Source: Oculina patagonica (Eukaryota). From it: a stretch of DNA of 64,000 bases. A program made the translations under genes and the position numbers. Shown here piece after piece: positions 4,639-61,154 of this stretch. A model generated the notes under the pieces. The model made no database searches, had not been told where the DNA came from, and was given only the letters and a program-made list of their open reading frames with translations. The DNA is taken from the NCBI RefSeq assembly GCF_052425735.1, contig NC_135767.1:15562001-15626000 (forward strand). The letters are read 5' to 3'. Numbering within the stretch: the first letter of the stretch is position 1; each line of letters opens with the position of its first letter.

Positions 4639-5615
4639 AGTAGTAAGGCACAGCTGTTTAGCAGAATACCAATCACAGTGCAGGGATTATAGCAGATGAC
4701 CAATCACGTTACAGGGATCGGGTCACGTGACAAATAAGTAGTTCAAATTTTTGAGGCTGTGACGTCATCACTCGGACCACCAATCAGCGTTCAATGGCCG
4801 TTTATTACGTCATCATTGGCCGCGCGAGGCCTGGAACCGAGTTGACACGCGGGACGTCTGCGGGACCCGAGTAATCCCGCGCCCTATCTTAGCAAGACCA
4901 CCATCCTCGCAAACTGCCATGCTGTCCTTGTGGTATCTGAAACTAAATACTTGGCACTTAACGCATGCGCAGAGTAGTCTACGCGATTCACTCACAGAGT
5001 TAGCAAGCCGACCATCCTTTATATATGGTTCACAAACGGCCATGCTGCCCTTGTGGTATCTGAAACTAAATACTTGGCACTAAACGCATGCGCAGTTGAG
5101 TCTACGCGATTCACTCACAGAGTTAGCAAGCTGACCATCCTTTATATATGGTTCGCAAACGGCCATACTGTCCTTGTGGTATCTGAAACTCGATACTTGG
5201 CACTTAACGCATGCGCAGAGTAGTCTACGCGATTCACTCACAGAGTTAGCAAGCCGACCATCCTTTATATATGGTTCACAAACGGCCAGGCTATCCTTGT
5301 GGTATCTAAAACTAAATACTGTGCACTAAACGCATGCGCAGATTAGTCTATGCGATACACTTGCACTAAATAATGAGTTACCCCTCTTATGAAGACCCCA
5401 AAGGTATATAGGCTTTCCTTGTGGTATCTGAAACTAAACATTTTGCACTACACGCATGCGCAGTTGAGTCTATATTGCTTTTTCTAAGAATTTGGGTCGG
5501 CGATTCAGAGAAAACGCACGCTTGTAAAGCTATTTTTTAAAAAATCACGTGAGAGAGAGGGGGATGGGGGTATCCCCCTTTCTCGGGTGTACTGGGAACG
5601 AGTAAGAGAGTTTTG
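4639..5615 (+). repeat. Left terminal inverted repeat (977 bp)
   Basis: Reverse complement of 24433-25409; only one mismatch noticed (5335 vs 24713). Confidence 0.95.
4926..5470. repeat. ~4.5 tandem copies of a 123-bp unit within the left TIR (mirrored in the right TIR)
   Basis: CCTTGTGGTATCT recurs at 4926, 5049, 5172, 5295, 5417. Confidence 0.9.
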
Positions 5616-5703
5616 TTTGTTTGCTCAAGTCGGTGATCGAATGCACATACGACAACATGTAAACGTTCAACCTGTTCTTTATTGTGTTTAACGTTACACA
5701 ACA

Positions 5704-6069
5704 TTAAAGTTTCAACTTTTTCTTGGCTTGCATGATTCGTTTGACAATGCGTTCCGTCATGGTTTTACTTCCAGGTAATTTGTTGATGGCTTTAATCATT
5801 TTCTCGTCGGCTTTCCACTTGTCCCTTAGATTCTTGGCGTGACTGTAATCGATGTCGTGCTGTTTGGCGATCTTGTCTAATCGATTGATGCCCGGGTCCC
5901 CGCGTTTCAATCGCTTTGCCAATTTGGTTCCGGGACCCATGTACTGATAACCGGGCCAGTGAAATTCGATTCCAGTCTTCCCGAGCCACTTCTGAATGTC
6001 GATCCCACGTCCGCGTTGTCGTCGCCGTGTCGTCTTTTTTTCAGTCCTCTTCTTCTTGGTCTTCGTCAT
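5704..6069 (-). CDS. Parvovirus VP1u-type phospholipase A2 with basic N-terminal leader (PLA2X-like)
   Basis: Ca-binding loop PGYQYMGPG, catalytic LDKIAKQHDIDY and downstream AD; Arg-rich leader ending QRGRG. Confidence 0.88.
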   Translation of the reverse strand: MTKTKKKRTEKKTTRRRQRGRGIDIQKWLGKTGIEFHWPGYQYMGPGTKLAKRLKRGDPGINRLDKIAKQHDIDYSHAKNLRDKWKADEKMIKAINKLPGSKTMTERIVKRIMQAKKKLKL

Positions 6070-6643
6070 ACTCCAATTTTCGTCTCAACTTTTTGCCTTT
6101 GGCCCAATCTTCCCAACCGGGTAATGGTTTCAGTTTCTCGGCTTCCGTTTTTCGCACAGCTGGCTTTTTCCTCGTCTTTAGTTTCTCTTCTAAACTCTTG
6201 AATCTCTCTGCCAATGTCGGTTTGCCCGCAGGTGCCGATTTTGCTTTCTTTGTCGCCTTCGGGGTGACTGTGGGAGGTGATTTCTTGGCACTCCCTTTTA
6301 TGAGTTGTTTCAACATGGTCTCCACGGGTCCCGTCACCAAACCTACATTCTCCAACTCCTCCTCCTCCTCCTCCTCCGCTTCTTCGCCCGGCCGTCTGGC
6401 TGTTACTCCTCCCATGGGAAATTGACGTATCCGTTTGGTCAAACGAGCCCGTTCGCGAGCGAGAGGTTTCACTCGTGCCACGGCGATACCGTCGGGAACG
6501 GATTTATCTTTTAACAGCAAGTGACTTTCGGCTGCTATGCGAGCCGCTTTGTTCAACAATGCATTGTCCGTGATTTCGCCTTTGTAATATTGCACCAAAC
6601 GATTCAAGTCTTTAGCGGGAACCATCACGACTTCCTCGGTCAT
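6041..6643 (-). CDS. Polinton hypothetical protein (200 aa, Glu tract, Lys-rich C-terminus)
   Basis: ATG ORF tiling with neighbours in the minus-strand cluster. Confidence 0.7.
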   Translation of the reverse strand: MTEEVVMVPAKDLNRLVQYYKGEITDNALLNKAARIAAESHLLLKDKSVPDGIAVARVKPLARERARLTKRIRQFPMGGVTARRPGEEAEEEEEEELENVGLVTGPVETMLKQLIKGSAKKSPPTVTPKATKKAKSAPAGKPTLAERFKSLEEKLKTRKKPAVRKTEAEKLKPLPGWEDWAKGKKLRRKLEYDEDQEEED

Positions 6644-7004
6644 CTTTGAAGTATTCTTCCAACAAGCTTTCGTAACACCCTTGCCAGTAACGAACTTCCT
6701 CTTCTAACTTGTCTATGCGCCTTTTCAAGTCGCTTCTCGATGTACACTTGTCGCTACACTCCTTGCACAGTACTAGGGTCTTTCCTTCCGGAGTCTCTTG
6801 CCTCTCTCGAATGCAATCTTCGCACTCTGCGTCGTATTTTAAAGCCAAATAGTCATGATTGACGCGGGCGTAGGCTTCGTGCCAGTGGTCTGCTCTTTTT
6901 TCCCACTCTGCTTCTCTGTCCGCCGATTCGCGTAACATCTTCATCATTGTCTGGAGGGTGTTTTGCAGAGACATGCTTGGTAGATCTGTTGCAGTCCTTT
7001 CCAA
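6612..7004 (-). CDS. Polinton hypothetical coiled-coil protein with CxxC...CxxC
   Basis: CEDC and CKEC motifs; heptad-like LKRRIDKLEEEV; start uncertain. Confidence 0.6.
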   Translation of the reverse strand: MERTATDLPSMSLQNTLQTMMKMLRESADREAEWEKRADHWHEAYARVNHDYLALKYDAECEDCIRERQETPEGKTLVLCKECSDKCTSRSDLKRRIDKLEEEVRYWQGCYESLLEEYFKDDRGSRDGSR

Positions 7005-7279
7005 AACCCGCTACCCTTCTGTGACAGGAGACCTTCTCGCCTTCTCTTCAACGAGTTTCTGCGCTTACCCAGTTCGCGCAAGACCTTCTTATATCGTCGC
7101 AGCTTGGCGGTGATCGGTGGACTGAGCGGAATGCGGTTCTTGAGCAAATTCAATACCATCTCACTCACGGCGTTGATCTGATCGGCGTTGGCGTGCTGTA
7201 ACATCTCTTCTCGCTTGAACCGATTGGCTTCTCTCAGAATGCTCTCCAAGAACGGACGCTGTCGACGTAATCGATTCAT
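6944..7279 (-). CDS. Conserved small basic Polinton core-like protein (PW/gasderminX-like)
   Basis: NAVSEMVLNLLKNRIPL...KLRRYKKVLREL...QKGSGF pattern typical of Maverick small core ORFs; ATG 7279 overlaps upstream TGA (ATGA). Confidence 0.7.
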   Translation of the reverse strand: MNRLRRQRPFLESILREANRFKREEMLQHANADQINAVSEMVLNLLKNRIPLSPPITAKLRRYKKVLRELGKRRNSLKRRREGLLSQKGSGFWKGLQQIYQACLCKTPSRQ

Positions 7280-7479
7280 ACTTCCCACGGGGCTGGACGT
7301 CGGTTGTAACTACCGGTGACGCCCTTTGCCCCCATCCTCTTATAGCGTTTGTCCTTTCCCAATTTATAACCTAACTTGCCGGCAAACTTGAGTATGTCCA
7401 ATAAACCCTCTCCTCTCCACACGGGTCCTCTTTTAGGTTGTTTTCGTCTTCTCCTTATTATCTTTCTTCCTCGCACCAT
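7276..7479 (-). CDS. Small Arg-rich core-like protein with RGEG site and amphipathic helix
   Basis: RRRRKQPKRG...WRGEG/LLDILKFAGKLGYKLGK. Confidence 0.65.
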   Translation of the reverse strand: MVRGRKIIRRRRKQPKRGPVWRGEGLLDILKFAGKLGYKLGKDKRYKRMGAKGVTGSYNRRPAPWEV

Positions 7480-7547
7480 CTTGTCACAGAATGCAGTCTG
7501 TTGTAACTACCGGTGACGCCCAATGCCCCCATCCTCTTATAGTGTTT

Positions 7548-7754
7548 TTATCTCTTTTTCTTTCGAGTGGCTGCATCCAAGGCTTTCTTTGCACCCCAAC
7601 CTGCAGCACCCGATGCAGCACCCAAAGCGATTGCTTTTCCACCCGCGATCAAAGCTGGTATCAAGGCTGCTAAGGGTAAAATACCACCCTTCTGTCCTAT
7701 TCTTCTCCTGCCAGCACGTCTCCGCCTTTGCGTCACACGTTTCTTTCTCCTCAT
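7548..7754 (-). CDS. Adenovirus pX(mu)-like basic core precursor
   Basis: Arg tract, then QKGG/ILPLAALIPALIAGG, resembling adenovirus pX MRGG/ILPLLIPLIAAAIG. Confidence 0.7.
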   Translation of the reverse strand: MRRKKRVTQRRRRAGRRRIGQKGGILPLAALIPALIAGGKAIALGAASGAAGWGAKKALDAATRKKKR

Positions 7755-7758
7755 GGCC

Positions 7759-7980
7759 CTATCGTCGTCGCGGTCTACGTCTATAATGATTTACATTATC
7801 CATTATCCCTTTAAATCCTTGACTGGCCAATTTACCACCCAACGTGAAGAATGTGGGTGAAGGACCCGAGAGAAACATGCTGGCCCCCTCGGCTATCTTG
7901 TCCACCAAACGATGTTTACGTCTCGCGAGAGCCCCACCTCGCTGCCTCTTTCTTCTGGCCTTACGTTTCGTTCTTCCCAT
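7759..7980 (-). CDS. Small Arg-rich core-like protein
   Basis: RKRQRGG/AL motif, amphipathic middle segment, basic tail. Confidence 0.65.
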   Translation of the reverse strand: MGRTKRKARRKRQRGGALARRKHRLVDKIAEGASMFLSGPSPTFFTLGGKLASQGFKGIMDNVNHYRRRPRRR

Positions 7981-7998
7981 CCTACCATAACTGTCACT

Positions 7999-8493
7999 TC
8001 AGACGGGGGTACCTTCGGATTTATCGTGTTGTCGTTCGTACGCTTGCACGTACTTGTCGGCCACGGGCGGCGTGAAATCGGTGATCGTGTCATCTAGAGT
8101 TTGCATCTTGATCAAGAATCCTTCTAGTTCGTTCATCGGAAGACCGCGCGCGTACGTTCTCAATTCGATCAACGTCTTGTCGTAGCTGGTGTAGGCAAAA
8201 CGACATACGTCCACTTTGAACGAATATTTCTTGAAATCGTTCCAGCCCTTGACGACAGTCCCAGCTGAAGTTAGGCATGCCACAATAACACTATTTTCTG
8301 TAAGGGAACCCGCAATGACACCCGCTGCCACGATGAACAAAGCCAAAGCATTCAATGAAGCATGACACCACTTAAAATGGTAAAACATTTGACGATGACA
8401 CCACCACTTTTTGTGGTAAAAGTTATACAATCCGTCCAATCTGTGTAACAGGTCTGGATCCAAGTTCGTCTTCGAACCGTTTAGTAGGGACAT
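7999..8493 (-). CDS. Two-TM membrane protein, SLATT-like
   Basis: Hydrophobic hairpin LNALALFIVAAGVIAG...VIVACLTSAGTVV flanked by aromatic/basic helices (FKKYSFKVDVCRFAYTSYDKTL). Confidence 0.55.
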   Translation of the reverse strand: MSLLNGSKTNLDPDLLHRLDGLYNFYHKKWWCHRQMFYHFKWCHASLNALALFIVAAGVIAGSLTENSVIVACLTSAGTVVKGWNDFKKYSFKVDVCRFAYTSYDKTLIELRTYARGLPMNELEGFLIKMQTLDDTITDFTPPVADKYVQAYERQHDKSEGTPV

Positions 8494-8495
8494 CT

Positions 8496-8897
8496 TTAAT
8501 GGCTCACTCTCGTCGAGGTACGACGAACGGTCGGTCGTCCCCCGTCTTTATAGGTCGTAGTGATGGTGTTTGTCGTGGTGATGCCTGCGATGCGACGTCC
8601 AGCCGCCACTTGACGTTGATCATTTAACAGCATTTGCAATTGACGTTGCATGTCGTCTTGATTCAATTGGTGTGGACCACCCGTTAGCGTTCCTTGACCT
8701 GCAGGTACGTTAGACCTCGAGGAAGAAGGTCTCAAAGTCCCCGTACCCACTGCAGGAGACGGTAATTGATCCAAGTACCGTCTTAGGACTATGGGGTCGA
8801 TTCGATCCAATGTCTGTTCCAATCCCCCTCGGTTGACGTTGACGATCGGAATGGCACTAGGACTGGTTCCTACTCCTGCTGGCGAATGTCTTGACAT
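8496..8897 (-). CDS. Polinton hypothetical protein (133 aa, low complexity)
   Basis: ATG ORF abutting neighbours. Confidence 0.55.
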   Translation of the reverse strand: MSRHSPAGVGTSPSAIPIVNVNRGGLEQTLDRIDPIVLRRYLDQLPSPAVGTGTLRPSSSRSNVPAGQGTLTGGPHQLNQDDMQRQLQMLLNDQRQVAAGRRIAGITTTNTITTTYKDGGRPTVRRTSTRVSH

Positions 8898-9109
8898 GTT
8901 TTTCTAGCTCTCTCTTCTAGTGTCTGGATCAATTCGCTGAAGTAAGTCTCGTTATATTCTCTCACGAATTTCCACATCTGTCGCTTTTTGGCCAAATGTA
9001 GCACGGTTTGCATGGCGTCGTAGTCCATGTCCTCTTCTCTCATACGCTCGAAATGACGACTGCACAGGTCCAAGAACGCGAGCCACACGTGATCGTTACG
9101 TACGAACAT
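8870..9109 (-). CDS. Polinton hypothetical protein (79 aa)
   Basis: ATG ORF filling the gap downstream of the ATPase. Confidence 0.5.
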   Translation of the reverse strand: MFVRNDHVWLAFLDLCSRHFERMREEDMDYDAMQTVLHLAKKRQMWKFVREYNETYFSELIQTLEERARKTCQDIRQQE

Positions 9110-9761
9110 CTCGAACGAATCTGTAACATCTCATGCATCCCTCGCCTTTTAAGAGGTGGCTAAAAATCCGTCTGTCGTCGCCACTGGCAGGGTGTAGATC
9201 CAATACCATGTAACCAAAGGGTCTTTCCGTCGTCTTGGTGTAGACGTCCATCACATCTTGCCATCGGGAGGGAAACGCTTGTAACAGTAAATTCCTCATG
9301 CCCAATTGATCGCGAGGGTTCTTGAAAGCCACGATGTAATGCGCATTTCGAGAAATGCTCTTGGCGTATTTTCCCGGCGGAAACATGTCTTGACACAAGT
9401 ACAGGACGGTGATGTTCCTGTGGTGGGAAAGTTTGGTGAACAGATCCAATACTCTCTTGTCGTTTCCTCCTTCTTCCATCAGATCGTCCAATACCATCAC
9501 CCCTCCGCGGGGAAACCATTTGGTCAAATCTACTTCTTCGGGAATCCCTTCGTGAAATTTCACGCCTCGCTTTTTCATGTTCGCGAAACCGTCTTGCCAA
9601 GCCCCAAAACAGTAATGAATGGTCTCAGGGGGTGTACTAAACAACTCTTTTGAGTGATTCAAAAGTACCGACTCGGTAAAACAAGTCTTTCCGCAGCTAG
9701 AGGGGCCCACGATCAAAATGCTAGAGGGCATCCGAAAGCTAAAGGCTTCACCGCGCTCCAT
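9096..9761 (-). CDS. A32/FtsK-like genome packaging ATPase
   Basis: Walker A GPSSCGKT, Walker B MVLDDLM, SHHRN and ISRNAHY motifs; first ATG at 9761. Confidence 0.93.
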   Translation of the reverse strand: MERGEAFSFRMPSSILIVGPSSCGKTCFTESVLLNHSKELFSTPPETIHYCFGAWQDGFANMKKRGVKFHEGIPEEVDLTKWFPRGGVMVLDDLMEEGGNDKRVLDLFTKLSHHRNITVLYLCQDMFPPGKYAKSISRNAHYIVAFKNPRDQLGMRNLLLQAFPSRWQDVMDVYTKTTERPFGYMVLDLHPASGDDRRIFSHLLKGEGCMRCYRFVRDVRT

Positions 9762-9893
9762 GGCGAAATGACATTCGTCAAAAAACGAGCAATGATATAA
9801 GCATGTTGCAGAAAAAAAGTCTGCAACGAATCCCGATCTCCCGAGCGACAGACGACACACACCTTATTCATTTCAACGTTTTTATTTGTCATC

Positions 9894-10463
9894 TCACAAC
9901 AACAAGTGTCTTACACCGCAGAGAGACGGTTCACAATCCTGATGGTATTCCATCTTACAAATTTTGTGCCACGACCTTTCCTTCGAGATCAATTGCTTCA
10001 ACATTTGCCCAACTTTATGATCATTGTACACGTAATCGTGTTTCTTGAATCTCGCTTCGAATTGACTCATGCTACGTCCTTCGGCCCTATCGATGAGATA
10101 CATCAACGCGTAATCGCCGCAGCTCTGACTGTACAACGATTGTAGACTCTGTCCGTTGCGCTCCACGTACTTCCAATGAGCGTCCAACCAATCTTGCAAC
10201 GGTTGCGCCGTCTGGTACACCTCCAGGGGTAAGGCGTAACTGTCCAACACTTCGCACACGTTTCCATTCGTCCACAGAGCGATCCAATGCCGACCGCGCA
10301 TGTAGTGGGGATCGGTGTTGACGATGTACCCGCGGGCTTCCGTCTTGAATGGTTTTCGAGGTAATCGATCGCAGGCCACCGTCCCGTAAAAGTAAGGTTT
10401 CAACGAAGGGTGATGTCTGGCCAGCTGATCCAACTGCACGTTATTCAAAGTCACTTTTTCCAT
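9894..10463 (-). CDS. Adenain-like cysteine protease (PRO)
   Basis: IVNTD...GRHWIAL...LDSY...QSLYSQSCGDY (His/Asp/Gln/Cys); AATAAA downstream at ~9879-9884 (minus strand). Confidence 0.92.
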   Translation of the reverse strand: MEKVTLNNVQLDQLARHHPSLKPYFYGTVACDRLPRKPFKTEARGYIVNTDPHYMRGRHWIALWTNGNVCEVLDSYALPLEVYQTAQPLQDWLDAHWKYVERNGQSLQSLYSQSCGDYALMYLIDRAEGRSMSQFEARFKKHDYVYNDHKVGQMLKQLISKERSWHKICKMEYHQDCEPSLCGVRHLLL

Positions 10464-10465
10464 CA

Positions 10466-11869
10466 CTAACGCTGGTACACGTCGTACAACACGGCTTTGT
10501 TCTTGTCTATCTCCAAGAGATTCTCAAACTCTCCGTACACGATGATGGTCAAGTTCACAGCTGGGTTGGCTCCAAAGTTCAGCTCTATTAGTAGATTTCC
10601 GGCTTGCTTGGGGTTCATCCTGTAACTGTCCACGCATCCATTGGCCACGTTGTCGAACACGAACAACGTGCAATTCTTTCCTTGTCCCCAATCGTCACCT
10701 CTCACCATGTTTCCTTGCTGCTTGCACAGACATCCGGTGGCTTGCAAGAAACGGTGGTACCCTCTGAGATCTTTGGTGCCATCGTTGTGGACCAACTCTA
10801 GCGTCTCGTAAGGATACTCTTCTCCTCCCACGAGTTGTTTTATGCTGCTCATTCCAAACTTCTGAAAACAGAAGGGATCGTTGACCACGTTCCCGGTGAA
10901 GGCTGTGGACAGTACCATACCCACGATCACGCGGTTGGGAATTCTTCCTTGGAACAAGTTGGTGCATTCGTACCGTCGTTGATCTCCCTGCATGTTGAAG
11001 GTCCGAATCTCGCTTCTCACGGTCGGGTAACTCACCACTTGACTCTTGGTGGTCATCTCATCCATCAGTCTCCTGTACGTCGTGGGATTGAGACGCACTT
11101 GACACAGGTACATTCGAACTTTGACTTCCTCGGCCGTCAACTTTCCTGCCAGACCCACTCCGTTCAAGAACACGTCGGGAGAATTGAAGTACATCTGTAT
11201 TCCTATCTGCACTCTGGGTACCAACAACTTGCTCAGATGAAACACTTCGATGAGGGGTTTGAAACGCAACACGTGTCGCTTGCCTTCCGTGTAATTGGCT
11301 TGTTCTGCTTTAGAGTTCTTGAGAGCCTCCTTGTGATTGGCGGTCAGGGCTACATAGTCTGCGTGTCCAGCTCCAGCGTTGGCTGCAGTGTTCGTGTTAT
11401 TGTCCGTCCACGTGGCTGGGAAATCGATATGATTGTACCATCCTTGAGGTTTCAAGATGGTTTCTCCATCACGTCTGTCGTAATTCAGCAACGTTTCCAA
11501 GAAGGCTCTGTAATGGTACGTGTCCGTCTGGGGACTGATGAGAGTACCGTTGAGACGCACGCTGATTTGCTTGAACAGAGAATGGGCTAGATTGTTGACG
11601 GGCCACAGCTTGTCGGCAGCTGCCACGTTCTCATCGTTGTCTTTCTTCAGTTGCAATTCTACCTCGAAAAAGCTACGGCTGAGATCGATGTAATCTTCTT
11701 GGGGGTCGATCTGAAACTCCACCGGATTGATGCCTGTGGTGTAGGTCTGAACGGGGACCATCCGATACGACGAGACGCTGACGTCTGTCGGTGGTACGGC
11801 GAATAGATCCAATCGAGGATTGGCCTCGCGTCTCGACTGCGGGTAGGCGCTCGAGATGGTTTCGGTCAT
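10466..11869 (-). CDS. Major capsid protein (double jelly-roll, hexon-like), 467 aa
   Basis: LDLFAVPPT, YIDLSRS, PVNNLAHSLFKQI, YHYRAFLETLLNY motifs of Polinton MCP; located between mCP and protease; ATG 11869 overlaps upstream TGA. Confidence 0.85.
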   Translation of the reverse strand: MTETISSAYPQSRREANPRLDLFAVPPTDVSVSSYRMVPVQTYTTGINPVEFQIDPQEDYIDLSRSFFEVELQLKKDNDENVAAADKLWPVNNLAHSLFKQISVRLNGTLISPQTDTYHYRAFLETLLNYDRRDGETILKPQGWYNHIDFPATWTDNNTNTAANAGAGHADYVALTANHKEALKNSKAEQANYTEGKRHVLRFKPLIEVFHLSKLLVPRVQIGIQMYFNSPDVFLNGVGLAGKLTAEEVKVRMYLCQVRLNPTTYRRLMDEMTTKSQVVSYPTVRSEIRTFNMQGDQRRYECTNLFQGRIPNRVIVGMVLSTAFTGNVVNDPFCFQKFGMSSIKQLVGGEEYPYETLELVHNDGTKDLRGYHRFLQATGCLCKQQGNMVRGDDWGQGKNCTLFVFDNVANGCVDSYRMNPKQAGNLLIELNFGANPAVNLTIIVYGEFENLLEIDKNKAVLYDVYQR

Positions 11870-12102
11870 CGTCTTCTCTTCCTTCTTCCACGGCGCTTCC
11901 GTAAGGTCTGTATCCAGTCGTAGCCAGGAGGCTTTCTGACCTCGGGACCTATCCACCCGCCCTTTTGTACTTTTCGTCGTCGCCTCTTTTGTCCCAACAA
12001 GGCCTGGTTCAAAAGTGCCAGTGAGAATCCTTCTCCCCGCTGTCTGACGGGGGCGCGTTTGGATCGGACCAGTCTGGACGATCGCGAGTAAACGGGATTC
12101 AT
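11866..12102 (-). CDS. Small basic core-like protein with two protease-type sites
   Basis: QRGEG/F and QKGG/W motifs, Arg tracts; ATGA overlaps at both ends. Confidence 0.65.
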   Translation of the reverse strand: MNPVYSRSSRLVRSKRAPVRQRGEGFSLALLNQALLGQKRRRRKVQKGGWIGPEVRKPPGYDWIQTLRKRRGRRKRRR

Positions 12103-12356
12103 TTTTCGGCAAAGATGTCGTTCAGTTTTCTCTTGACGTTTCGTTCTATGACGTTTTTCAGTTTGCGTTTCACGACTCGTTTAGGACCACTCTTGGCTCC
12201 TTGACCCGCTTTACGAATGCGGTCCGCGACGCCGCGCCCACTCTTAAATCCTCTCACGGCTCCACCCAGAGACTCTCTCACGATGTCGGCCAAAAATCCG
12301 TTCCCCTCTTGAGGTGGAGGATCCGGTGTGAAACGCGTCAGGGCACCGCCTCTCAT
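12099..12356 (-). CDS. Basic amphipathic protein, adenovirus pVI-like/cupiennin-like membrane-active candidate
   Basis: MRGG/A and QEGNG/FLADIVRESLGGAVRGFK; located between mCP and MCP. Confidence 0.6.
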   Translation of the reverse strand: MRGGALTRFTPDPPPQEGNGFLADIVRESLGGAVRGFKSGRGVADRIRKAGQGAKSGPKRVVKRKLKNVIERNVKRKLNDIFAEK

Positions 12357-13384
12357 GTTCGCTTGATATGTAAGGTCACGATCGTGTTGCCTTCGCCAAA
12401 ATCCACCAGTTTACCTGTAGTCTCGCTCACTTGCGTTTCAATAATGTCCACAATCTGGTTGCGGAGTGGAATATATTGTATGTGGAGAGGTTCAAAGTAC
12501 TTGATACCTTTTCCTTCACGTTGAAAGTGAATTTCCCGCAACAGATCCGTGACTTGATTTCCCACTACGGAACTACCACCCACATCTGAGTAAACGAAAA
12601 GCGTACGCGATGCGTCTCCAATCACTTTTTGGAAGGCTCTGTTGAGTTTCACAAAGCGCCAGTTACAATAGCAACTCAAGAAAAGCTGTCCATTCTCAAC
12701 AACCCAGAAATTTTTCTTGCCCTCTCCAAAATCATCCACGTCTATGGGATCGGGTATCGTAGCGTGGTGGCATTCCGGCTTCAGGTTCGGCCCGAGAAAC
12801 ACGTTTTCTTTCTCGTCCTTTTTTACCCATCCCATGTCAAAGGCCAAATCCTCGTTGAAAGACATGTAATATGGGACGCCTTCAGTTTTCACTTCCGAGA
12901 CGTCCAAGTTCGAGTTGTCGAGGACTAGTTCTTCACCTTCCCACTTGAACGTATATTCCCACTGCTTTCCATTATCGGGCGACTTGGTCAAGTCTCCCAC
13001 GATACGCTTGTATTCTTTGACTTGATCGAACTTGAAGACCAGGGCTTTCATGAAACTGAGGCCATCCACGATGTTGTCGTCATATAGAATGTCCTGGAAC
13101 GTCAGATCGGTGGTCACCGACTTGCTTTGCACGCGACCCTCCTGGTCTTTGCGCTTGAGCATCCACTGGGCACTCAAGAGAGGAAACTTGAACGACTTAA
13201 AGCGAGTTAAGTCGATGCTGGCATCTGGCACGGAAATGCTACTCAATCCCACTTTCCAACCGGTTCCTTGCAATCGTAGCGGGTGAGGTAATCGCACCTT
13301 GAAAGAGTTTGCTCTATTCTCTGGAAACTCGGTTCCGCTGCTGTGACTGGGTAACGTGACGTAAAATCCTTCCTCGTGGCTCAT
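12353..13384 (-). CDS. Minor capsid protein (penton, single jelly-roll with insertion)
   Basis: FYVTLPSHSS...FPENRANSFKVRLP...WKVGLSSI; LFVYSDV...VGNQ..LLREI...YIPL...VTLHIKR. Confidence 0.88.
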   Translation of the reverse strand: MSHEEGFYVTLPSHSSGTEFPENRANSFKVRLPHPLRLQGTGWKVGLSSISVPDASIDLTRFKSFKFPLLSAQWMLKRKDQEGRVQSKSVTTDLTFQDILYDDNIVDGLSFMKALVFKFDQVKEYKRIVGDLTKSPDNGKQWEYTFKWEGEELVLDNSNLDVSEVKTEGVPYYMSFNEDLAFDMGWVKKDEKENVFLGPNLKPECHHATIPDPIDVDDFGEGKKNFWVVENGQLFLSCYCNWRFVKLNRAFQKVIGDASRTLFVYSDVGGSSVVGNQVTDLLREIHFQREGKGIKYFEPLHIQYIPLRNQIVDIIETQVSETTGKLVDFGEGNTIVTLHIKRT

Positions 13385-14765: not shown

Positions 14766-14792
14766 GACAAATGAACTTTTATTTATACAACG

Positions 14793-15563: not shown

Positions 15564-15564
15564 G

Positions 15565-15840
15565 TCACTGCTCTTGGCTTGCTTCGGCCGAACCTTTGTG
15601 TAATGCACTCTCCAGATCACAAAACCAATGCTCTTGACACTGCATAAACGTGTAGCCGGCTTCCATGCCACGTTTCGCGCGCTCCAATAGGTAATCTTCG
15701 TCCGATTGATAATCGCCCCTTTTTAGATCCCTATAGTAAGGCAATGGTTCCCAGTCCTTGGGATCTCCTTGTACAAAGACACCGTTGACTTGTGGGGTTT
15801 GAGGTTGAGTTTGGCTGAAATCGCTCTCTGTGCTTTCCAT
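15565..15840 (-). CDS. Polinton hypothetical protein (91 aa, acidic)
   Basis: First ATG after a TATA/Inr promoter on the minus strand. Confidence 0.6.
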   Translation of the reverse strand: MESTESDFSQTQPQTPQVNGVFVQGDPKDWEPLPYYRDLKRGDYQSDEDYLLERAKRGMEAGYTFMQCQEHWFCDLESALHKGSAEASQEQ

Positions 15841-15844
15841 CGCT

Positions 15845-16025
15845 ACAACTGAGTCGACAAATGGACGCGCAGCTCTTTTTATACGTTGGATGACGTCACC
15901 TGGGTCATTGCCGGTTGGTCGGAAGAGGTCACGTGTTACCTCTCTGGTTGGTTCGTGCGTATTGACGTCATCCGAGAGTAAAGTATAAAAGCACCGTGTT
16001 GTCTCCTGTTAGTCCTCAGTTGGAG
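15845..16025. promoter_or_regulatory. Symmetric bidirectional Pol II promoter
   Basis: TATAAAA at 15877-15883 (-) and 15984-15990 (+); TCAGTT Inr at 15847-15852 (-) and 16016-16021 (+); CRE TGACGTCA at 15891 and 15963; E-box GTCACGTG at 15928. Confidence 0.75.
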
Positions 16026-16038
16026 CATCGAGAGCACC

Positions 16039-16947
16039 ATGGACGTAGCAGAACCCCAAAAAAAGCGACAGAGGAGAGGGACTGGAAACCCCAAGAAACC
16101 CAAAGTCCCCCGTAAAAAGAGACATCCTACAAAGAAGAAGATGGAGTTGAAAGAGGAAGTGTTGGAGGAGGGTGAAATTTTCGACCCCGACCAGTTCCTG
16201 CAACAGACCTTTGTCGACACGGAGCGCGACCCGGTTTGCCCCGTCCACAAAGAACCGCTGACCAAGAGAATGACGGACGGGGGATGGGAGTTCTACTTTT
16301 GCCCCCACACGAGCGAAGGCACCATCTGTTTCATTTGCACCGGTAGCGCCCACATTGACCAGTACGTGGTGGCGGTCAATCAACAGTTACCGGCTTACTA
16401 TTATTGGAACACGGATAAGATGAAATGTTACTGCAACGAGAGTCTCATTCTGAGCATGTCGAAATCAGAGAGCAACCCGGACAGGATCTACCTCAAGTGC
16501 AGAAAGGGTAAATGCCGGTTCTTCCAATGGGCAGACAGTCTTCCGTTTGGCAAGATCAAAGCCTGGCTGGAAGGAAAGGAATATGTGGGAAACGAGGATC
16601 CCCTCTACTCGAGAAGGTCTGGACTGGACTCTAGGGACGAATTTGGATACCCCAGAAGAGGACAAGACGTGGTGGATAGACCGCAACGAATTCTGGATGG
16701 GAGACCCGCCTTCAAAGTACAACACTACCCACCCCCGGTCAAGGATTGGATTGGTGATCTTCCCTTGGACGAGTCATTGGTCAAACAGTGTCAAGAGCAA
16801 AAGTTTTGGGTGGATGGAGAAGGGAAAATTATTCTTCCCCCGGAATTGGCTGGCGTGAAGTACGACTCGGATGAAGAGAAAATGCTGAGAAATCAACTGT
16901 ATCTGAGATGCATTTCCCAGAAACAATATCCTAATTTGGATCATTGA
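16039..16947 (+). CDS. GRF-type zinc-finger protein with N-terminal NLS
   Basis: CYCNESLILSMSKSESNPDRIYLKCRKGKCRFFQWAD = zf-GRF; a second related Cys/His cluster CPVH...FYFCP...CFIC; KKRQRR/PRKKRH NLS. Confidence 0.8.
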   Translation: MDVAEPQKKRQRRGTGNPKKPKVPRKKRHPTKKKMELKEEVLEEGEIFDPDQFLQQTFVDTERDPVCPVHKEPLTKRMTDGGWEFYFCPHTSEGTICFICTGSAHIDQYVVAVNQQLPAYYYWNTDKMKCYCNESLILSMSKSESNPDRIYLKCRKGKCRFFQWADSLPFGKIKAWLEGKEYVGNEDPLYSRRSGLDSRDEFGYPRRGQDVVDRPQRILDGRPAFKVQHYPPPVKDWIGDLPLDESLVKQCQEQKFWVDGEGKIILPPELAGVKYDSDEEKMLRNQLYLRCISQKQYPNLDH

Positions 16948-17012
16948 GATTTACAGTTTAAACATTTTCATATATTTTCTACGTCAAGCATCAGAGTGCA
17001 GTTGGCTCTGGC

Positions 17013-17534
17013 ATGACTCCGGAAAACGTGTGCATGATCTTGGACTTGGAAGGTTACTTTGTGGAGAAGACGTTTCGAGTACGCGAGTTGGGTTATTACA
17101 CTTGGCAAGAAAAGTTCGGACGCCATGCTTTCTACATGAGAATGTCGTGGTGCAACTTATCTTCCAGAGACAGAAAAACCGTGTCTTACGTCAAATACAA
17201 CGTGCACGGACTGACGTATCAACCCAGAAAGGAAGAAAAGGCCTACGAGTATGACAGGGTGGAGGAGGTGATGTGGGATTTGTACGAGGAGACCAAAACC
17301 CCCGAGAGAACCGTGGTGGCTTACAAGGGAGGACACGTAGAAAGAGACTTGTTGAACAAACTGAACATTCCTAGCGTGAATTTAGAACTGTACGGATGTC
17401 CGAAATACGACGTGTTGAAAGAGACAATTGTAGAACCTTTACCTAGTTGCGGTTTTCATCTATACGAAGGACATTGTCCAATGACCGAATGTCATGCTTT
17501 CTGGTTATGGTACCAGACTTTTGTTGTTAAATAA
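17013..17534 (+). CDS. DnaQ/DEDDh-fold nuclease, Maelstrom-like
   Basis: ExoI ILDLEG, VRELG, VHGL, ERDLL, C-terminal CGFH...HCPMTEC; stop overlaps AATAAA. Confidence 0.68.
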   Translation: MTPENVCMILDLEGYFVEKTFRVRELGYYTWQEKFGRHAFYMRMSWCNLSSRDRKTVSYVKYNVHGLTYQPRKEEKAYEYDRVEEVMWDLYEETKTPERTVVAYKGGHVERDLLNKLNIPSVNLELYGCPKYDVLKETIVEPLPSCGFHLYEGHCPMTECHAFWLWYQTFVVK

Positions 17535-17589
17535 ATTTAAAAATTGCTCCATGCCGAAACTGAATTACGAGAGTATGGGATTCAATCGC

Positions 17590-18760
17590 TTAAACAACAA
17601 CAACAAATACCGCACGCTAAATTATATTTTTTCGCGAACGGTGAAAATCACAACAAAGTCGATGACACTTGTGCTTAGAGTCCAAAAATATGAAATTTTC
17701 GGCTCAATAACATTCATCGAAATAATATCTTTTATGGTTGGACGTCTTTTTGATTTAAGGGCCGAAAAAAATATTTTTTCTTCGAGAAAAAACATTTGAA
17801 CAACGGCCGAATGAACCACCTACAACGATTATATTTTTAGCGGCCGGTGAAAAAATCACAACAAACTCGTTGACACACTTGTTTAGGGTGTAAAAATGTG
17901 AAGATCCGGCTCAATGACTTGCTTTGAGATTCACTAAAATAATATCATTCATGGTTGGACGTCCCTTTCATTTCAGGGCCGCAAAAACAAACAAACAAAC
18001 AAACGCATTTAAACAACAACAAATACCGTACGCTAAATTATATTTTTTCACGAACGGTGAAAATCACAACAAAGTCGATGACACACTTGTTTAGAGTCTA
18101 AAAATGTAAAAAAGTCGGCTCAATGACTTGCTTTGCGTTTTACTAAATTAATACCATTCATGGTTGGACATCTCTTTGATTTAAGGGCCGCAAAAACATT
18201 TTTTCCTCGAGAAAAATGCATTTGATCAACGGTCAAATGAACTGCACGCTAAAATTATATTTTTTCGCGACCGGTGAAAATCACAACAAAGTCGATGACA
18301 CTTGTGCTTAGAGTCCAAAAATATGAAATTTTCGGCTCAATAACATTCATCGAAATAATATCATTCATGGTTAGACGCCCCTTTGATATAAGGGTCGCAA
18401 AAAAAAAAATTTTTTTCTTCGAGAAAAATGCATTTGAACAACGGCCAAACGAACCTCACGCTAAAATTATATTTTTTCGCGAACGGTAAAAATCACAACA
18501 AAGTCGTTCACACACTTGTTTAGAGTCTAAAAATGTGAAAGGTTCGGCTCAATAACTTGCTTTGAGTTTCAGTGAAATGATATCATTCATGGTTGGACGT
18601 CCCTTTTGATTTAAGGGCCGCGAAAAAATTTTTTCTTCGAGAACAAACATTTGAACAACGGACAAATGAACCGCACACTAAAATTATATTTTCTCATCAA
18701 ACGGTATATAGAATCACAACAGAGCGGTTGACACATTTGTTTAGGATTTACAACGTTTAA
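17590..18760. repeat. Internal tandem array, ~6 diverged ~210-bp units
   Basis: AATCACAACA recurs at ~17645, 17854, 18062, 18279, 18490, 18712 with similar flanks. Confidence 0.88.
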
Positions 18761-19253
18761 GCTTCACTTCTAGTGGCTAGTTTTTAATTTTTTCTGAATC
18801 CTAGTTGAAGGTTCCTTCGATATTTTTAGGACCGCGAAAAGAAAAAGATGAAAGCGTTTGTTTACGAAAGACAACGACAACTGCGCGAGCAATTTCGCTA
18901 AAAAGAATAACTCAGTCCACCAAAAACGACTTGTTTATTCGTAAAGTTCTGTTTCTTCTTTTTTTTTTTTGACCATAAACACAACTAGACCAAAAAACCT
19001 TGAACGAAATGAACGGGTCTAAAACCTTTTTCTTCTTTACTATGCACGGTTCATGATGGCCGCACGAACAAAAACAAACCACTCGTCAAAATTTACAACG
19101 TAACCAAATTTATTTTTCGCAGTAAATACAATTTATCAAACGCTCTTCGTCTTGTACAGTAGAGTATGGAGACATTAGCTCACCTTAAAGCTTATATCCT
19201 TCTTGAAAAGAGCTGTAATCCGACAAGAAAACTTTGTCCGTTTTACTGTACTT

Positions 19254-19535
19254 TTCCGAGAATGAACACACGCGGGTTCCTAGAATTCCGAGAATTCCGA
19301 GAAAGATTCTCCACGCGCGTGCGTCGGGATTTTTCCCTTGGGGAAAATCCCGTCAGCTTGGGATTTTACCCTTGTGGGGAAAATCCCGTCACCTTGGGTG
19401 ACATTGATCATGAGATCTCATTGGTTCATTCTGTATCAGGTCACCTCGATTGACCAATGGGAATATTAGAGCCCAGTTCTTCTGGGATAGGAAAGTTGTA
19501 TAAAACGCGCTGCACTGCTAGAAAACTTCAGTTTT
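19254..19535 (+). promoter_or_regulatory. pPolB promoter with GAS-like and kB-like motif clusters, CCAAT, TATA and Inr
   Basis: TTCN3GAA at 19254, 19277, 19286, 19295; GGG(A/T-rich)CCC at 19326, 19340, 19360, 19376; CCAAT ~19454; TATAAAA 19499; TCAGTT with A at 19530. Confidence 0.65.
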
Positions 19536-19824
19536 GCCGGCCCATGGGGGCCGAACAGGAAGAAGCCAGAAGAAGCAAGCAAGAAAGAAGACAAGCAAGA
19601 AAAAAGCAAGCAAGAAAGAAGACAAGCAAGAAGAGGACATCGTGGTAAGAGAACCTTTCAGTCCTGAATTTTATTTTTATTTTTTGGAGCAATGAGTGTC
19701 TTGGGTTTTCGGATTTGAAAATTGGATTTTTTGTCGTTCGTCATAAAATTAATTGTGTGACTGATAAATGCCTTTGACATATTAATGTGTAATGTTTTCG
19801 TTTTTGTAGTTGGACCCGTCTAAC

Positions 19825-22800
19825 ATGGGAGAAAATGATTCAATTAAAGACATTGCGGTAAGTAAATTTTAAGTGATTGTCTGTGCAAGTAGTCGATTAC
19901 TGATCGACAAGGTCGTAGTCATTTCATGGTTTAGGCGCCGACTACGTTCCTCCCTCCCTGCTTGCTGTGCACATGCGTTTATGAAGATGCTTGATTACAA
20001 CAAACAACCCATCCTTCATATCTGGCAATCCACAAGCCAATCAGAAGACCTGCTGTCAATTAAAATATGTCAAACCTGTGAAATAGCTAGCATCTCGAGC
20101 CGGTATGTAATAGCCCGAATATAAACGTTGTGATCGGTTAGGTCGATAACATGTAATCTCGTTGTTTGAATAAATTAAAAAAGAAGCGTGTTGTTTTTCA
20201 TTCTTCAAAATGTTTGAATCGTAGGAGTGGAGCAACGAGTGGAACGATGATGGTGACGAACTTTTGGCGGACTCCGTTGATCAATCAGTGCAAGACGAGC
20301 CAGGATTCGATTTCCAACTTTTCCCCCACGTGGATAGACGGGTCAGGAGATTCGGGCTGAGACACAGGAACTACACGGCGCGATTGGTCCAACGTGGAGG
20401 CGGGGTCGACCTTTCCGTACCCCTAGGACCCAGACCCGTGCTGGCGGGCGAGATCGAGGAGGCCCTGCAGCGAGCCATCAACAGACAAGTGCTGACGGAC
20501 GACGCCGTCCGATTGGACGATCACTTGCTGATCAACATCAACTCCAACAGACTAAGGAACGCGTACCACTCGCGTCGATTGAGGGTCAGAGATTGGAGAG
20601 ACAACACTCTCCCTGCCAGACAAGTGTTGGACCAACTTAGCAACATGCTAAATTCTGATCAGCAGTTTAGAATAGACGACAGTTTTAACCTGAACATCAG
20701 CCACATACAGGACCCCGGAAGAGGAGGTAGACCACCCAAAGTGGGACTGGACGCCATAGAAAAGATTTTGGACGAGAAAAAATCGGTGATTAAAATTACA
20801 AACACAGACTCACTGTGCTGCGCCCGAGCCCTGGTGACCATGAAGGCTCATAGAGACCTTGGCGCCAGTGACAATAGATACAAGAATATACGACAAGGAA
20901 GTCGAGTCCAAGAACGTTTGGCCAAAGAGTTGCACCGCTCGGCCGGTGTAGCAGAAGGACCTTGCGGCCTAGACGAACTGCAAAAATTCCAAGTGTCATT
21001 GGCAGAGTACCAGATCGTGGTAATATCCGTCCAGCACGGCTACCAAATCATATACAAGGGACCGCAAAGACCGGAAGCCAAGCGTCTGATCCTAATAAAG
21101 AACGGCGACCATTACCACGGTTGCAACTCTTTGAAAGGCTTCTTCGATAAAAACTTCTATTGTATAGAATGTGAAAAAGGTTACGACCACAATAACGCCA
21201 AAGACCACCGCTGTCTGGGTAGAAAGTGCTTCGCCTGTCACCAGAGCGATTGCCGCGACTACAAGCGAGCAGAAGGAGAGACGGCGCAGGTGCGATGCAA
21301 CGACTGCGGGCGCTGCTTCTTCGGGGACCGCTGTTTCAAGAATCACAAGCAAAGGCAGAGCGACGACGGGAAAAAGGCCGACGGACGAAAAAAGAACAGC
21401 GTCTGTCACACGAGAAAGAAGTGCGAACGGTGCCGAAAGACCTACGAAGGGTACGAATTGACCAACGGTCACCGATGCGGCCACGCCGAATGCCCGTCGT
21501 GTCGAAAGTACGTGGACCTCAACGCCCACAAGTGCACGATCCAAAATCCAGAAAAGTTGGAAGAAGACAGAGAGAAGAGGCGGGCTAGAAAGAGGAGGAA
21601 CGACGGCACCCGAATCGTCCCGCAAGAACCCGAACCGCCCGTGTTCGTCTCGTGGGACGCGGAGGCCAGACAGGAAGAGGGCATACACGTTCCAAACCTC
21701 ATATGCGCCATGACAACGAACAGCGAGGAAGAGTACCAGTTCGAGGGGGAGACGTGCGTGAAGGACTTTTTGGATTGGTTGAGAGAGATCGCGGAGGACT
21801 CCAAGGTGATCGCCGTGGCCCATAATTTCCAGGGCTATGACGCCTACTTTGTGTTGGACGAACTGTACCGACAAGGCATCTGTCCCGACCAGGTGGTCAA
21901 CGGGGCCAAGATCTTATCCATGAGCATACCCAACATCACGTTCAAGGATTCGATGTGCTTCCTGCAAATGCCCCTGTCCTCGTTCCCCAAATCCTTCGGA
22001 CTGACGGAAGAAAAGAAGGGGTTTTTCCCGCACTTTTTTAATACCGTGAACAATCAGAACTATGTGGGACGGATCCCTGCCCGTGACTATTATGATCCCC
22101 AGGGCATGTCGAAAGAGAGAAAAGAGGAGTTTGATCAGTGGTACGCTGAACGATTGGCCGAGAACTATCACTTCGACTTTCAAAAGGAACTGATAGCTTA
22201 CTGTAAATCCGACGTGAGGCTGTTGCACGAGGGATGTCGAGTCTTTAGAGAAGAATTTCGCGACGTGGCGGGGTTCGACCCCATGGAGAAGTGTCTGACG
22301 ATAGCCACAGCCTGCAATCTCTATTTTCGCACCAAGTGCATGAGAAAGGACACCCTGGGCTCAGAACCCGTCAGAGGATGGCACGGAAAAGGGAAACCTC
22401 ACTCCAGAGCTTCGATGGAATGGCTGTTGTACGTGGGGAACGTGACGCACGCCAGAAACGGTGGCGAAGCAGTCATTCCCGTGGCCGGCAAACGCGTTCA
22501 CGTGGACGGCCTGTCGACGGACGAGAAGACGGTCTATGAGTTCCACGGCTGTTTCTACCACGGTTGTCCGACGTGTTTTCCCCAGCGCGACAAGAAGCAT
22601 TCCAAATTGGACGGTAGGAGCATGAGAGACGCATACGAATCGACGCTCGACAAGACCGCGTCGCTGAGAGAAGCCGGGTATGAAGTTATAGAGATGTGGG
22701 AGTGCGAATGGAACGAGAAGAAGAGGACGGATGCTGACGTGGGCGCCTACGTGAAATCGCTGCGACTGACCGAGAGACTGGAACCGAGAGACGCGTTTTT

Positions 22801-24256
22801 TGGCGGGCGAACCAACGCCATAAAATTATACCACAAAGTCCAAGAGGGTGAAAAAATCCAGTACGTGGACTTCACTTCCCTCTACCCCTTTATCAACAAG
22901 AATTGCGAGTACCCCGTGGGACATCCCGAGATCATCGTGGAACCGGGCACCACGGACCTCTCTGGATACTTCGGGTTGGCCAAATGCACAGTGTCTCCAC
23001 CGCACGGACTGTACCACCCTGTACTGCCCTACAGGCACGGCGGAAAACTGACGTTTCCATTGTGTCGGACATGCGTAGAGACCGAACAGGGGAAACCGCT
23101 GACCGAAAGATCGTGCAAGTGTAAGCACAGTCCCGAGGAGCGGCAATTGACTGGGACCTGGTGCACACCAGAGATCGAGGAGGCCGTGAAACGCGGGTAC
23201 GTCATAGAACACGTCCACGAAGTGTGGCATTTTGAGAAGAAAGACGACACGCTGTTCAGAGAATTCGTAAACACATTTCTAAAAATGAAGCAAGAAGCCA
23301 GTGGTTGGCCATCGTGGGTGGGTGACGACGTGGACAAACGCGTCCAGTACATCACTCAATACGAGCAGAAAGAAGGCATCAAATTAGACGCCGACAAGAT
23401 CGAGAAGAACCCCGGAAGGAGAAGCTTGGCAAAAATGATGCTAAACTCCTTCTGGGGAAAATACGGGCAGCAGTCCAACAAGAGTCAAGTAGAGGCGTAT
23501 ACATCTCCGGCAGAGTTCCACGACCTACTCAGAAACGACGAGAAAGTCATCGAAGACCTGCGCGTGGTAAATCCTGAAATGATCGAGGTCGTGCACAAGA
23601 ACAAAGAAGCCTGCGACCCCGTTCAAGTGAATATCAACATCTTCGTGGCCTGCTTCACCACGTGTTGGGCCAGACTGAAACTGTATCGGGACGGGCTCTC
23701 CAAACTGCAAGACGAGCAGGTCCTGTATTTCGACACCGACTCCATCATCTACAAACGGGGCGAAGGAGAAGACGAACTACCCCTGGGCGACTATCTGGGA
23801 GAGTTTACCAACGAACTAGACGACGAGGATTTTATCGTCGAGTTCGCCTCGGCAGGGCCGAAAAATTATGGATATAAAACAAAAAACGGGAAAACTACCT
23901 GCAAAGTGCGAGGATTCTCGCTCAACGCGCGAGGATCCGAACAATTGAATTACGAGATCTTGAAGCAGAACGTGTGCGACGAAGTGGAGCGACCCTTGGA
24001 CAAGCCCCGACACATACCCGTATTCAACCCGCACAAAATTACGCGAGACAAGAAGACAAAACAACTCCACACGCAGACAGAAATAAAACAATACAGAGTC
24101 GTATTTGATAAAAGGGTCGTGGACCCTGACAGTTTCTTCTCTTACCCTTATGGGTATTTGAAGAGCAGACTTGAGGTGGAAGCTGAAGAGCTTATGGATT
24201 TGGCCGAATTGAACGAGCAAGACAAAAGGAACATTGAAGTATTAATGGACCTTTGA
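19825..24256 (+). CDS. pPolB: Protein-primed family B DNA polymerase (TP region, vOTU, Zn fingers, 3'-5' exo, VSR-like insert, polymerase); predicted spliced, 1354 aa
   Basis: WDAE, AHNFQGYD, FKDS, KGFFPH, YCKSDV, DFTSLYP, KMMLNSFWGK, YFDTDS, GPKNY; exon 19825-19857 (GTAAGT donor) joins in frame to 20225-24256. Confidence 0.95.
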
Positions 24257-24432
24257 CTTTTTTTATTTCATTATAAAACCATGACCACTATTTTCAATTG
24301 TTTATTTGCATCATGGTCAGGCGAACGAAAACGATGTAACGTTCCTTTATTGTGAGCACATTAAAGAACAGGTTGAACGTGTTCATGGTGTCTATTGCAT
24401 TCGATCACAGACTTGAGCAACACAAATATAGT

Positions 24433-25409
24433 CAAAACTCTCTTACTCGTTCCCAGTACACCCGAGAAAGGGGGATACCCCCATCCCCCTCTCTCTCACG
24501 TGATTTTTTAAAAAATAGCTTTACAAGCGTGCGTTTTCTCTGAATCGCCGACCCAAATTCTTAGAAAAAGCAATATAGACTCAACTGCGCATGCGTGTAG
24601 TGCAAAATGTTTAGTTTCAGATACCACAAGGAAAGCCTATATACCTTTGGGGTCTTCATAAGAGGGGTAACTCATTATTTAGTGCAAGTGTATCGCATAG
24701 ACTAATCTGCGCCTGCGTTTAGTGCACAGTATTTAGTTTTAGATACCACAAGGATAGCCTGGCCGTTTGTGAACCATATATAAAGGATGGTCGGCTTGCT
24801 AACTCTGTGAGTGAATCGCGTAGACTACTCTGCGCATGCGTTAAGTGCCAAGTATCGAGTTTCAGATACCACAAGGACAGTATGGCCGTTTGCGAACCAT
24901 ATATAAAGGATGGTCAGCTTGCTAACTCTGTGAGTGAATCGCGTAGACTCAACTGCGCATGCGTTTAGTGCCAAGTATTTAGTTTCAGATACCACAAGGG
25001 CAGCATGGCCGTTTGTGAACCATATATAAAGGATGGTCGGCTTGCTAACTCTGTGAGTGAATCGCGTAGACTACTCTGCGCATGCGTTAAGTGCCAAGTA
25101 TTTAGTTTCAGATACCACAAGGACAGCATGGCAGTTTGCGAGGATGGTGGTCTTGCTAAGATAGGGCGCGGGATTACTCGGGTCCCGCAGACGTCCCGCG
25201 TGTCAACTCGGTTCCAGGCCTCGCGCGGCCAATGATGACGTAATAAACGGCCATTGAACGCTGATTGGTGGTCCGAGTGATGACGTCACAGCCTCAAAAA
25301 TTTGAACTACTTATTTGTCACGTGACCCGATCCCTGTAACGTGATTGGTCATCTGCTATAATCCCTGCACTGTGATTGGTATTCTGCTAAACAGCTGTGC
25401 CTTACTACT
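24433..25409 (-). repeat. Right terminal inverted repeat (977 bp)
   Basis: Reverse complement of 4639-5615. Confidence 0.95.
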
Positions 25410-61130: not shown

Positions 61131-61154
61131 GTTCACGCACAACCAGTCGACCTT

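Follow-up and report, generated by a model that had tools for sequence, protein, structure and literature searches.

Which parts of a Polinton have to stay together, and which can be exchanged? The question is raised by a Polinton of 20,771 bp in the coral Oculina patagonica. It occupies positions 4639-25409 of a 64,000-bp stretch of contig NC_135767.1 (positions 15,562,001 to 15,626,000 of the forward strand, assembly GCF_052425735.1). This whole stretch is called the window, and coordinates refer to it. Among the copies in this genome, the outer 100-270 bp of the terminal inverted repeats (TIRs) follow the type of the protein-primed polymerase B (pPolB), and the integrase follows the capsid core. 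The element in the window is a recent mosaic of a core shared genome-wide and a rare set of polymerase and tips.

Polymerase, tips and core among the copies

A sequence-only reading had described the locus as an intact, recent, capsid-encoding Polinton. The catalytic motifs, the predicted double jelly roll of the capsid protein and a near-identical sister copy bear this out, for an element of the alpha-adintovirus or group-2 kind. That it may be a reactivatable provirus was a further suggestion of that reading. The perfect target-site duplication (TSD) and the TIRs with one mismatch, reported in the same reading, were recovered as well. TACTAT (6 bp) is present at 4633-4638 and 25410-25415 on the forward strand. 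The 977-bp TIRs (4639-5615, forward; 24433-25409, reverse) differ at exactly one site, TIR position 697, and their similarity ends at position 978. Both ends open with AGTAGT, the (AGT)2 terminal motif which is a Polinton/Maverick trait (PMC8097293). The size of the element and the lengths of its TIRs and TSD are inside the Polinton/Maverick ranges, defined as 13-25 kb, 100-1500 bp and 5-8 bp, respectively (PMC10748475). The outer ~270 bp of the TIR, here called the type-A tip (4639-4906, forward; ~25142-25409 at the right end), is a putative origin for pPolB and its terminal protein.

The sister copy on C13 differs from the window copy by 21 mismatches and one gap over ~20.7 kb. The two are 99.9% identical through the polymerase, and the TSD of the sister is TATTAA. 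Near-identity combined with a different TSD indicates two independent, very young insertions. The copy in the window is best read as a young recombinant of type A with at least two insertions. The identity of the TIRs does not appear to come from assembly collapse, because the flanks differ and these TIRs recur in the sister, which lies on a different contig and has a TSD of its own.

Searches against the same genome gave different pictures for different parts of the element. With the DNA of the major capsid protein (MCP), 28 of 41 matches, the window copy included, were full-length at 99-100% identity. With the 3' half of pPolB, two of 43 matches were at 100% and the rest at 64-80%. The outer 262 bp of the TIR were matched over the full length at four of nine matches, which are both ends of the window copy and of its sister. 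The other 27 copies were compared individually with the window copy. Gene by gene, identity is mostly 93-100% across the core, from the phospholipase A2 (PLA2)-like gene at 5704 to position 17534, and the right accessory block is replaced in three copies. MCP is open in 27 of the 28 copies. The genes for ATPase, protease, MCP, minor capsid protein (mCP) and integrase are open together in 21.

The polymerase frame is longer than 900 amino acids (aa) in 21 of the 28 copies, and these frames fall into seven types: A (two copies), B (11), C (one), D (one), E (two), F (one) and G (three). The remaining copies are one broken G, five B stubs and one C stub. Identity of pPolB is 93-99.8% within types and 46-86% between types. 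In a quick tree, type C is the sister of type B. Beside these seven, the locus C13:31.58M carries an eighth polymerase type, 59-62% identical in protein to A-F, amid a cluster of several ends starting with AGTAGT.

The tips are sorted by polymerase type. Over the first 100 nt, copies of the same pPolB type show a mean identity of 85% (minimum 77%, 51 pairs), and copies of different types 57% (maximum 79%, 120 pairs), against an alignment background of ~50%. This comparison covers 19 copies and leaves out two sister copies as well as C13c, whose right end had been misplaced. In a Mantel test of 21 copies, including C13c with its right end taken at the duplicated outer terminus, pPolB distance is correlated with the first 250 nt of the tips (r = 0.59, p = 0.0005). 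None of nine core genes, the integrase included, is correlated with pPolB distance (p = 0.12-0.86). These p-values are descriptive, since the copies are related.

The TIR pairs are mostly 94-100% identical within a copy. Both outer ends were located in 25 of the 28 copies, where the 6-bp TSD is exact in 23 and agrees at five of six positions in two. No target-site preference is evident among the 22 distinct TSDs.

Some copies show exchanges next to the tips. In the G-type copy C3b, the middle of the TIR is 80-100% like type B, and the polymerase tail and 3' untranslated region (UTR) are 95-96% like type A. The ~190-nt tip of this copy has no B match and is 96-100% like other G copies. Types A and G are in general 93-96% alike in the polymerase tail and 3' UTR. 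In six of the 28 copies, a G or E tip is nested 1-2 kb inside an outer B tip, and all six have a B polymerase or a B stub. In one of them, C10b, nesting is limited to the left end, and the B frame is long. The six copies may stem from few events. The outer tips of the nested ends predate insertion, because the TSD flanks them. A second piece of a PLA2-like gene, 76-77% identical to that of the core, lies between the outer B tip and the nested tip at the left end of C10b and at L014, L038 and L074; its donor family was not found among the loci compared.

Five copies (C14, C3a, C1a, C13b and C2c) carry a B polymerase stub, one shared junction and then an inverted copy of the left end. Their TIRs are 2.1 kb or more, and they sit at five different target sites. 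Polymerase-less copies of this copy-back-like form at five target sites imply help in trans.

The reciprocal combination was also observed. One element has a D polymerase (95% aa identity) and D tips around another virion module, with an MCP 51% identical in protein and two minor capsid genes, and has the TSD AATAAA at both ends. A D-type element on contig C1176 has an MCP 96.6% identical in protein to that of the window, a minor capsid protein 53% identical and a SLATT-like gene 54% identical. Its polymerase is in the opposite orientation and its TSD is AATATC at both ends. This mixture indicates that single virion genes were swapped too. Elsewhere in the genome, C- and G-type polymerases adjoin C- and G-type tips. 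Three polymerase loci were considered as parents and rejected: the C-type at C2:29.55M and the G-type at C13:35.5M have no core gene within ~18 kb upstream, and C13:31.58M has none in 9.6 kb upstream. An element at C8:8.03M, at a distance of 125 kb from the core copy of type D, has two tandem minor-capsid genes (38% and 28% aa identity to that of the window) and ends of the D type.

Explanations for the matched sets

In the best explanation, this recently integrated, coding-complete Polinton comes from a population of viruses that recombine, with two freely assorting units, and we put the probability of this reading at roughly two in three. One unit would be the core with virion genes and integrase. 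The other, a replicon, would combine the body of the polymerase with the outermost 100-270 bp at both ends. Free copies of different types would replicate in one nucleus, and crossovers would occur in shared tracts, namely the promoter and leader, the 217-bp array, the inner TIR and the 123-bp repeats. Strand-displacement replication would then copy one end onto the other, and the five stub copies may be such products. Panhandle end-repair in adenovirus is a parallel to this end copying. Only recombinants whose outermost tips suit their terminal-protein-polymerase would be copied on. A single integrase would insert all types, because all ends share AGTAGT and little else may be needed. The capsid would be kept by selection for particles, as purifying selection on the capsid genes implies; the same argument was used for vertebrate Mavericks (PMC8097293).

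A working model for such matching is known from phages. As phi29 and GA-1 show, the polymerase, the terminal protein and the origin must be a homologous, matching set (PMC2175359). The likeness is in how the system works: these are phages with a separate terminal protein, a 6-bp inverted terminal repeat and no integration, and no family relation is claimed.

Sequence comparisons of the core are consistent with the recombining population. Four-gamete failures amount to 40-86% of informative site pairs within core genes (25 copies), which is a sign of free recombination. Differences among the copies are mainly synonymous. The ratio of nonsynonymous to synonymous diversity (piN/piS) is 0.08 for MCP (25 copies), 0.09 for mCP, 0.14 for the protease and 0.29 for both ATPase and integrase. 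The value for MCP indirectly supports a requirement for the capsid in this family.

Several points weigh against this reading. Types A, C, D and F are each represented by one or two of the 28 copies; independent events are accordingly scarce, and the Mantel p-values make them seem more numerous. The tip similarities of B and C overlap the range within types (79% vs. 77%). The inner TIR segments also lean to type, with 90-94% identity in the same type and 71-81% in different types; plain linkage thus explains part of the tip pattern. These identities come from a fixed-anchor comparison that caught eight to 14 of 19 copies; the exchanged TIR middles were read from similarity profiles instead. 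With a junction common to all five, the stub copies may represent one or two events. The four-gamete counts could be inflated by gene conversion or by polishing of the assembly. Finally, strict matching of polymerase and tip is not general, because a swap of pPolB in nematodes left the TIRs conserved, as described in PMC10748475.

The strongest rival is hitch-hiking, in which a single crossover would transfer the entire arm, which would then be copied to the opposite end, without any specificity. The polymerase is only 0.9-2.3 kb from the right tip, the inner TIR partly tracks type as noted above, and copying from end to end is visible in the five stub copies. However, tips have stayed true to type even where the sequence separating them from the polymerase was exchanged, as in C3b and in the tails shared by A and G, and in nested ends the tip that matches the polymerase is always outermost. 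Hitch-hiking as the only process is therefore considered unlikely.

Less probable still is a homing-like drive, in which a nuclease of the VSR type within pPolB would cut the genomes of rivals, into which the body of the polymerase would then be copied. The crossover points between A and G hug both ends of the polymerase body. The VSR-like insert is the most divergent internal stretch of pPolB (36-50% identity at aa 801-850, against 66-78% in the flanks), keeps D, E and H residues in all seven types and matches a PHROG endonuclease (E = 1.1e-6). Homing endonucleases have also been suggested as movers of replicases (bioRxiv 10.64898/2026.10.13.758929). Such a drive, however, would not carry tips that lie a kilobase off or at the far end, and the putative nuclease is weakly identified by its sequence (Vsr chains, E = 1.3). 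Homing may act on top of the recombining population.

Quite improbable is another alternative, in which ectopic gene conversion would have made the cores of old integrated Polintons from several families alike in situ. Four-gamete counts are high even within 100 bp, as gene conversion would predict. Against it stand the close identity of the TIR pairs with intact TSDs, the strong purifying selection on the core, the sister pair with different TSDs, and the nested outer tips flanked by TSDs.

An assembly artefact, with arms misjoined through a collapsed 12-kb repeat, is very improbable: the core is a repeat of 97-99% identity, but the left and right tips and TSDs agree at each locus, the exact TSDs in 23 of 25 copies show that arms were not misjoined, core differences are mostly synonymous, and 20 sequencing runs from nine studies contain 78-86% of the words of the core.

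The joint claim goes further than the recombining population, and its odds appear about even to us. Animal Polintons would have replicon specificity groups, in which each terminal-protein-polymerase reads its own tip only. Capsid genes and integrase would be an interchangeable chassis. The genome would record a switch under way, with the old tip inside and the matching new tip outside, and defective copy-back genomes that borrow polymerase in trans.

Genes of the element and its surroundings

The type-A pPolB frame (20225-24256, forward, 1343 aa) matches PF03175 (E = 6.9e-46) and contains the Exo I and II and Pol A to C motifs. It comprises a putative terminal-protein region, vOTU-like Cys/His motifs, the exonuclease, the VSR-like insert (~aa 730-850) and polymerase motifs A to C. 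N-terminal terminal-protein and vOTU domains are a feature of Polinton pPolB (PMC11161782). Here both domains are putative, the vOTU label standing at motif level; the Cys and His motifs, like the exonuclease, VSR-like and polymerase motifs, are kept in all seven types. The first ~22 and the last ~25 codons of type A are common to type G.

The sequence-only reading had listed uninterrupted frames for pPolB, integrase, ATPase, protease, MCP and mCP. All are open, but the pPolB frame lacks an early Met. Its first Met is residue 141 (ATG at 20645), and the region conserved across all types starts at about residue 28. As the first Met falls inside the conserved region, pPolB probably starts in a short upstream exon. 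An 11-codon first exon is predicted at 19825-19857 (ATG at 19825, forward), followed by a phase-0 intron at 19858-20224 with the donor at 19858 and the acceptor at 20223-20224. No other type than G shares this exon and these splice signals, which recur in its three copies with a long frame. In types B, C, E and F, the frame has an early Met of its own. The pPolB gene is thus likely to be spliced. A literature search on introns brought up no paper that was relevant by its title.

A TATA-like box for the polymerase transcript is at 19499-19505 (forward), and the sequence upstream of it (19000-19400) is 89-100% common to copies of B, E and G. An Arg/Lys-rich upstream frame noted by eye (19544-20370, ATG at 19544) possibly overlaps the leader of the polymerase in a different reading frame. 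A tandem array of 217 bp x 5.4 (17596-18744, forward) separates core and polymerase and is found in most copies. Another array, 123 bp x 3.7 (4910-5361, forward), lies in the TIR and is 85-95% like the arrays of other polymerase types. The coding region was claimed to be more GC-rich than the host. This is true for 5616-17550 (0.488) and 20001-24432 (0.506), compared with 0.367 in the left flank and 0.397 in the right flank, but not for 17551-20000, which contains the 217-bp array and the promoter (0.375).

The core (5704-17534) begins with genes on the reverse strand. The first encodes a PLA2X phospholipase A2-like virion protein (5704-6069) with YMGPG and DxxAxxHD motifs (PF08398, E = 6.3e-12). 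Three overlapping open reading frames (ORFs) of 200, 120 and 111 aa follow (6041-7279); they match no family above the cut-off and have piN/piS of 0.14, 0.31 and 0.13. A 52-bp direct repeat (92% identity, spacing 197) lies at 7299-7547 among several tiny basic frames. The next two genes encode a 164-aa two-helix protein of the membrane type (7999-8493), with a weak SLATT_1 match below the cut-off (E = 1.4e-4, 22.3 bits vs. 26.3), and a 133-aa ORF (8496-8897).

The probable A32/FtsK-type packaging ATPase (9096-9761) has Walker A and B motifs, and the probable adenain-like maturation protease (9894-10463) has His, Asp and Cys motifs. Their Pfam matches are below the cut-off (Pox_A32, E = 0.09; Peptidase_C5, E = 0.012), with the catalytic motifs present and a fitting gene order.

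MCP (10466-11869) gave no Pfam match and no sequence match in the PDB (best E = 0.39). Its structure, modelled from 73 sequences with a pLDDT of 94.4, is by Foldseek similar to the capsid proteins of iridovirus, PBCV-1 and mavirus (E = 1.9e-16 to 1.8e-14). By this predicted structure, MCP is a double jelly roll capsid protein. Two small Arg/Lys-rich ORFs (11866-12356; 78 and 85 aa) are possibly core proteins.

The penton-like mCP (12353-13384) is a candidate from its gene position and an Atlas match, with a feature score of 0.97 to the Sputnik V18/19 cluster, 26% of whose members have PF21507; this match is a lead. The search of PHROGs gave no match to any virion gene. The rve integrase (13381-14469) has a chromodomain and the D-D-E motifs (PF00665, E = 1.3e-12). 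Three accessory ORFs of 103, 256 and 91 aa end the reverse-strand genes (14454-15840), and the Atlas search with the 256-aa ORF gave only leads below 0.9.

Two genes are on the forward strand, a GRF zinc-finger protein (16039-16947; PF06839, E = 3.2e-7) and a 173-aa protein with a DxE motif (17013-17534). The latter has no family match and may be DEDD-exonuclease-like. By its gene content, a PF03175-class PolB together with a PLA2X virion gene, the element would belong to the alpha adintoviruses. Three organism labels occur among the 20 sequencing runs with words of the core, besides a coral-metagenome label that four runs from a single study bear; no RNA run is listed among them. This core may thus be shared across the labels of different species.

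Outside the element, the right flank has a satellite of 204 bp x 13.5 (28197-30939). An inverted repeat of 823 bp surrounds a broken reverse-transcriptase/GIY-YIG-like frame (58508-61253), presumably of the Penelope type. By eye, the frames at 36916-37710 and 48829-49476 look like those of the host and are similar to threonine synthase and a rhodopsin-type receptor.

Relation to known Polintons and meaning

Intact coral Polintons, their expansion and their expression are already published. Endogenous polintoviruses of stony corals encode capsids, have TIRs and are expanded as paralogues, and one coral species expresses their hallmark genes (Stephens et al. 2024, PMC11131425). They resemble the element in the window in capsid, TIRs, coral host genome and paralogous expansion. 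The main text of that paper contains neither "mosaic", "chimer" nor "target site", and has "recombinase" as its only related term; no analysis of modules at the level of copies was found there. In PMC11131425 and PMC8097293, Polinton replication is modelled, and particles from endogenous copies are described as not seen.

The closest case of polymerase exchange is in nematodes, where pPolB1 and pPolB2 were swapped, and a single genome combines distant pPolBs with non-polymerase genes that are close (Jeong et al. 2023, PMC10748475). Both families have related cores with distant pPolBs, and the marine pPolB2 has a VSR insert. As reported there, the nematode elements have two pPolB classes, a median MCP identity of 92% in protein and highly conserved TIRs. 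In contrast, the coral family has seven types, MCP genes of 98.3-100% nucleotide identity and tips that change with the polymerase.

Mosaicism of replicase and morphogenesis modules was described for Polisuviricotina, where modules reassociate and different replicases accompany identical morphogenic genes on one contig (Barth, Ha, Aylward 2026, bioRxiv 10.64898/2026.10.13.758929). According to this preprint, recent turnover is rare, and pPolB is linked with the DDE integrase via shared ends. In the coral family, turnover is dense in one genome, the integrase goes with the capsid and the tips go with pPolB.

Alpha adintoviruses have a gene set that the element in the window appears to share: an OTU-PF03175 polymerase, adenain, hexon, penton, FtsK, rve integrase and PLA2X (Starrett et al. 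2021, PMC8502044). The transfer of virion modules noted there is deep, between ancient lineages, and sections 3.1-3.2 of that paper contain no analysis of tips.

The new part is the family itself, a near-constant chassis of capsid and integrase with seven matched sets of polymerase and tips. Literature searches over freely readable main texts showed no report of tips tracking pPolB type, of the integrase parting from the polymerase or of nested tips. With a background that is nearly constant, the seven natural pairs of polymerase and tip would confine the origin to 100-270 bp. They would also separate the sequence read by the polymerase from that read by the integrase. Since matched as well as mismatched combinations are available for priming assays, origin recognition in Polintons becomes directly testable. 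Classifications based on capsid and on polymerase disagree even among genomes that are 99% identical. The family also points to coral germ lines being entered by a recombining virus population. If the specificity groups are real, the replication origin of Polintons would be located, and co-infection and recombination in the coral germ line would be shown.

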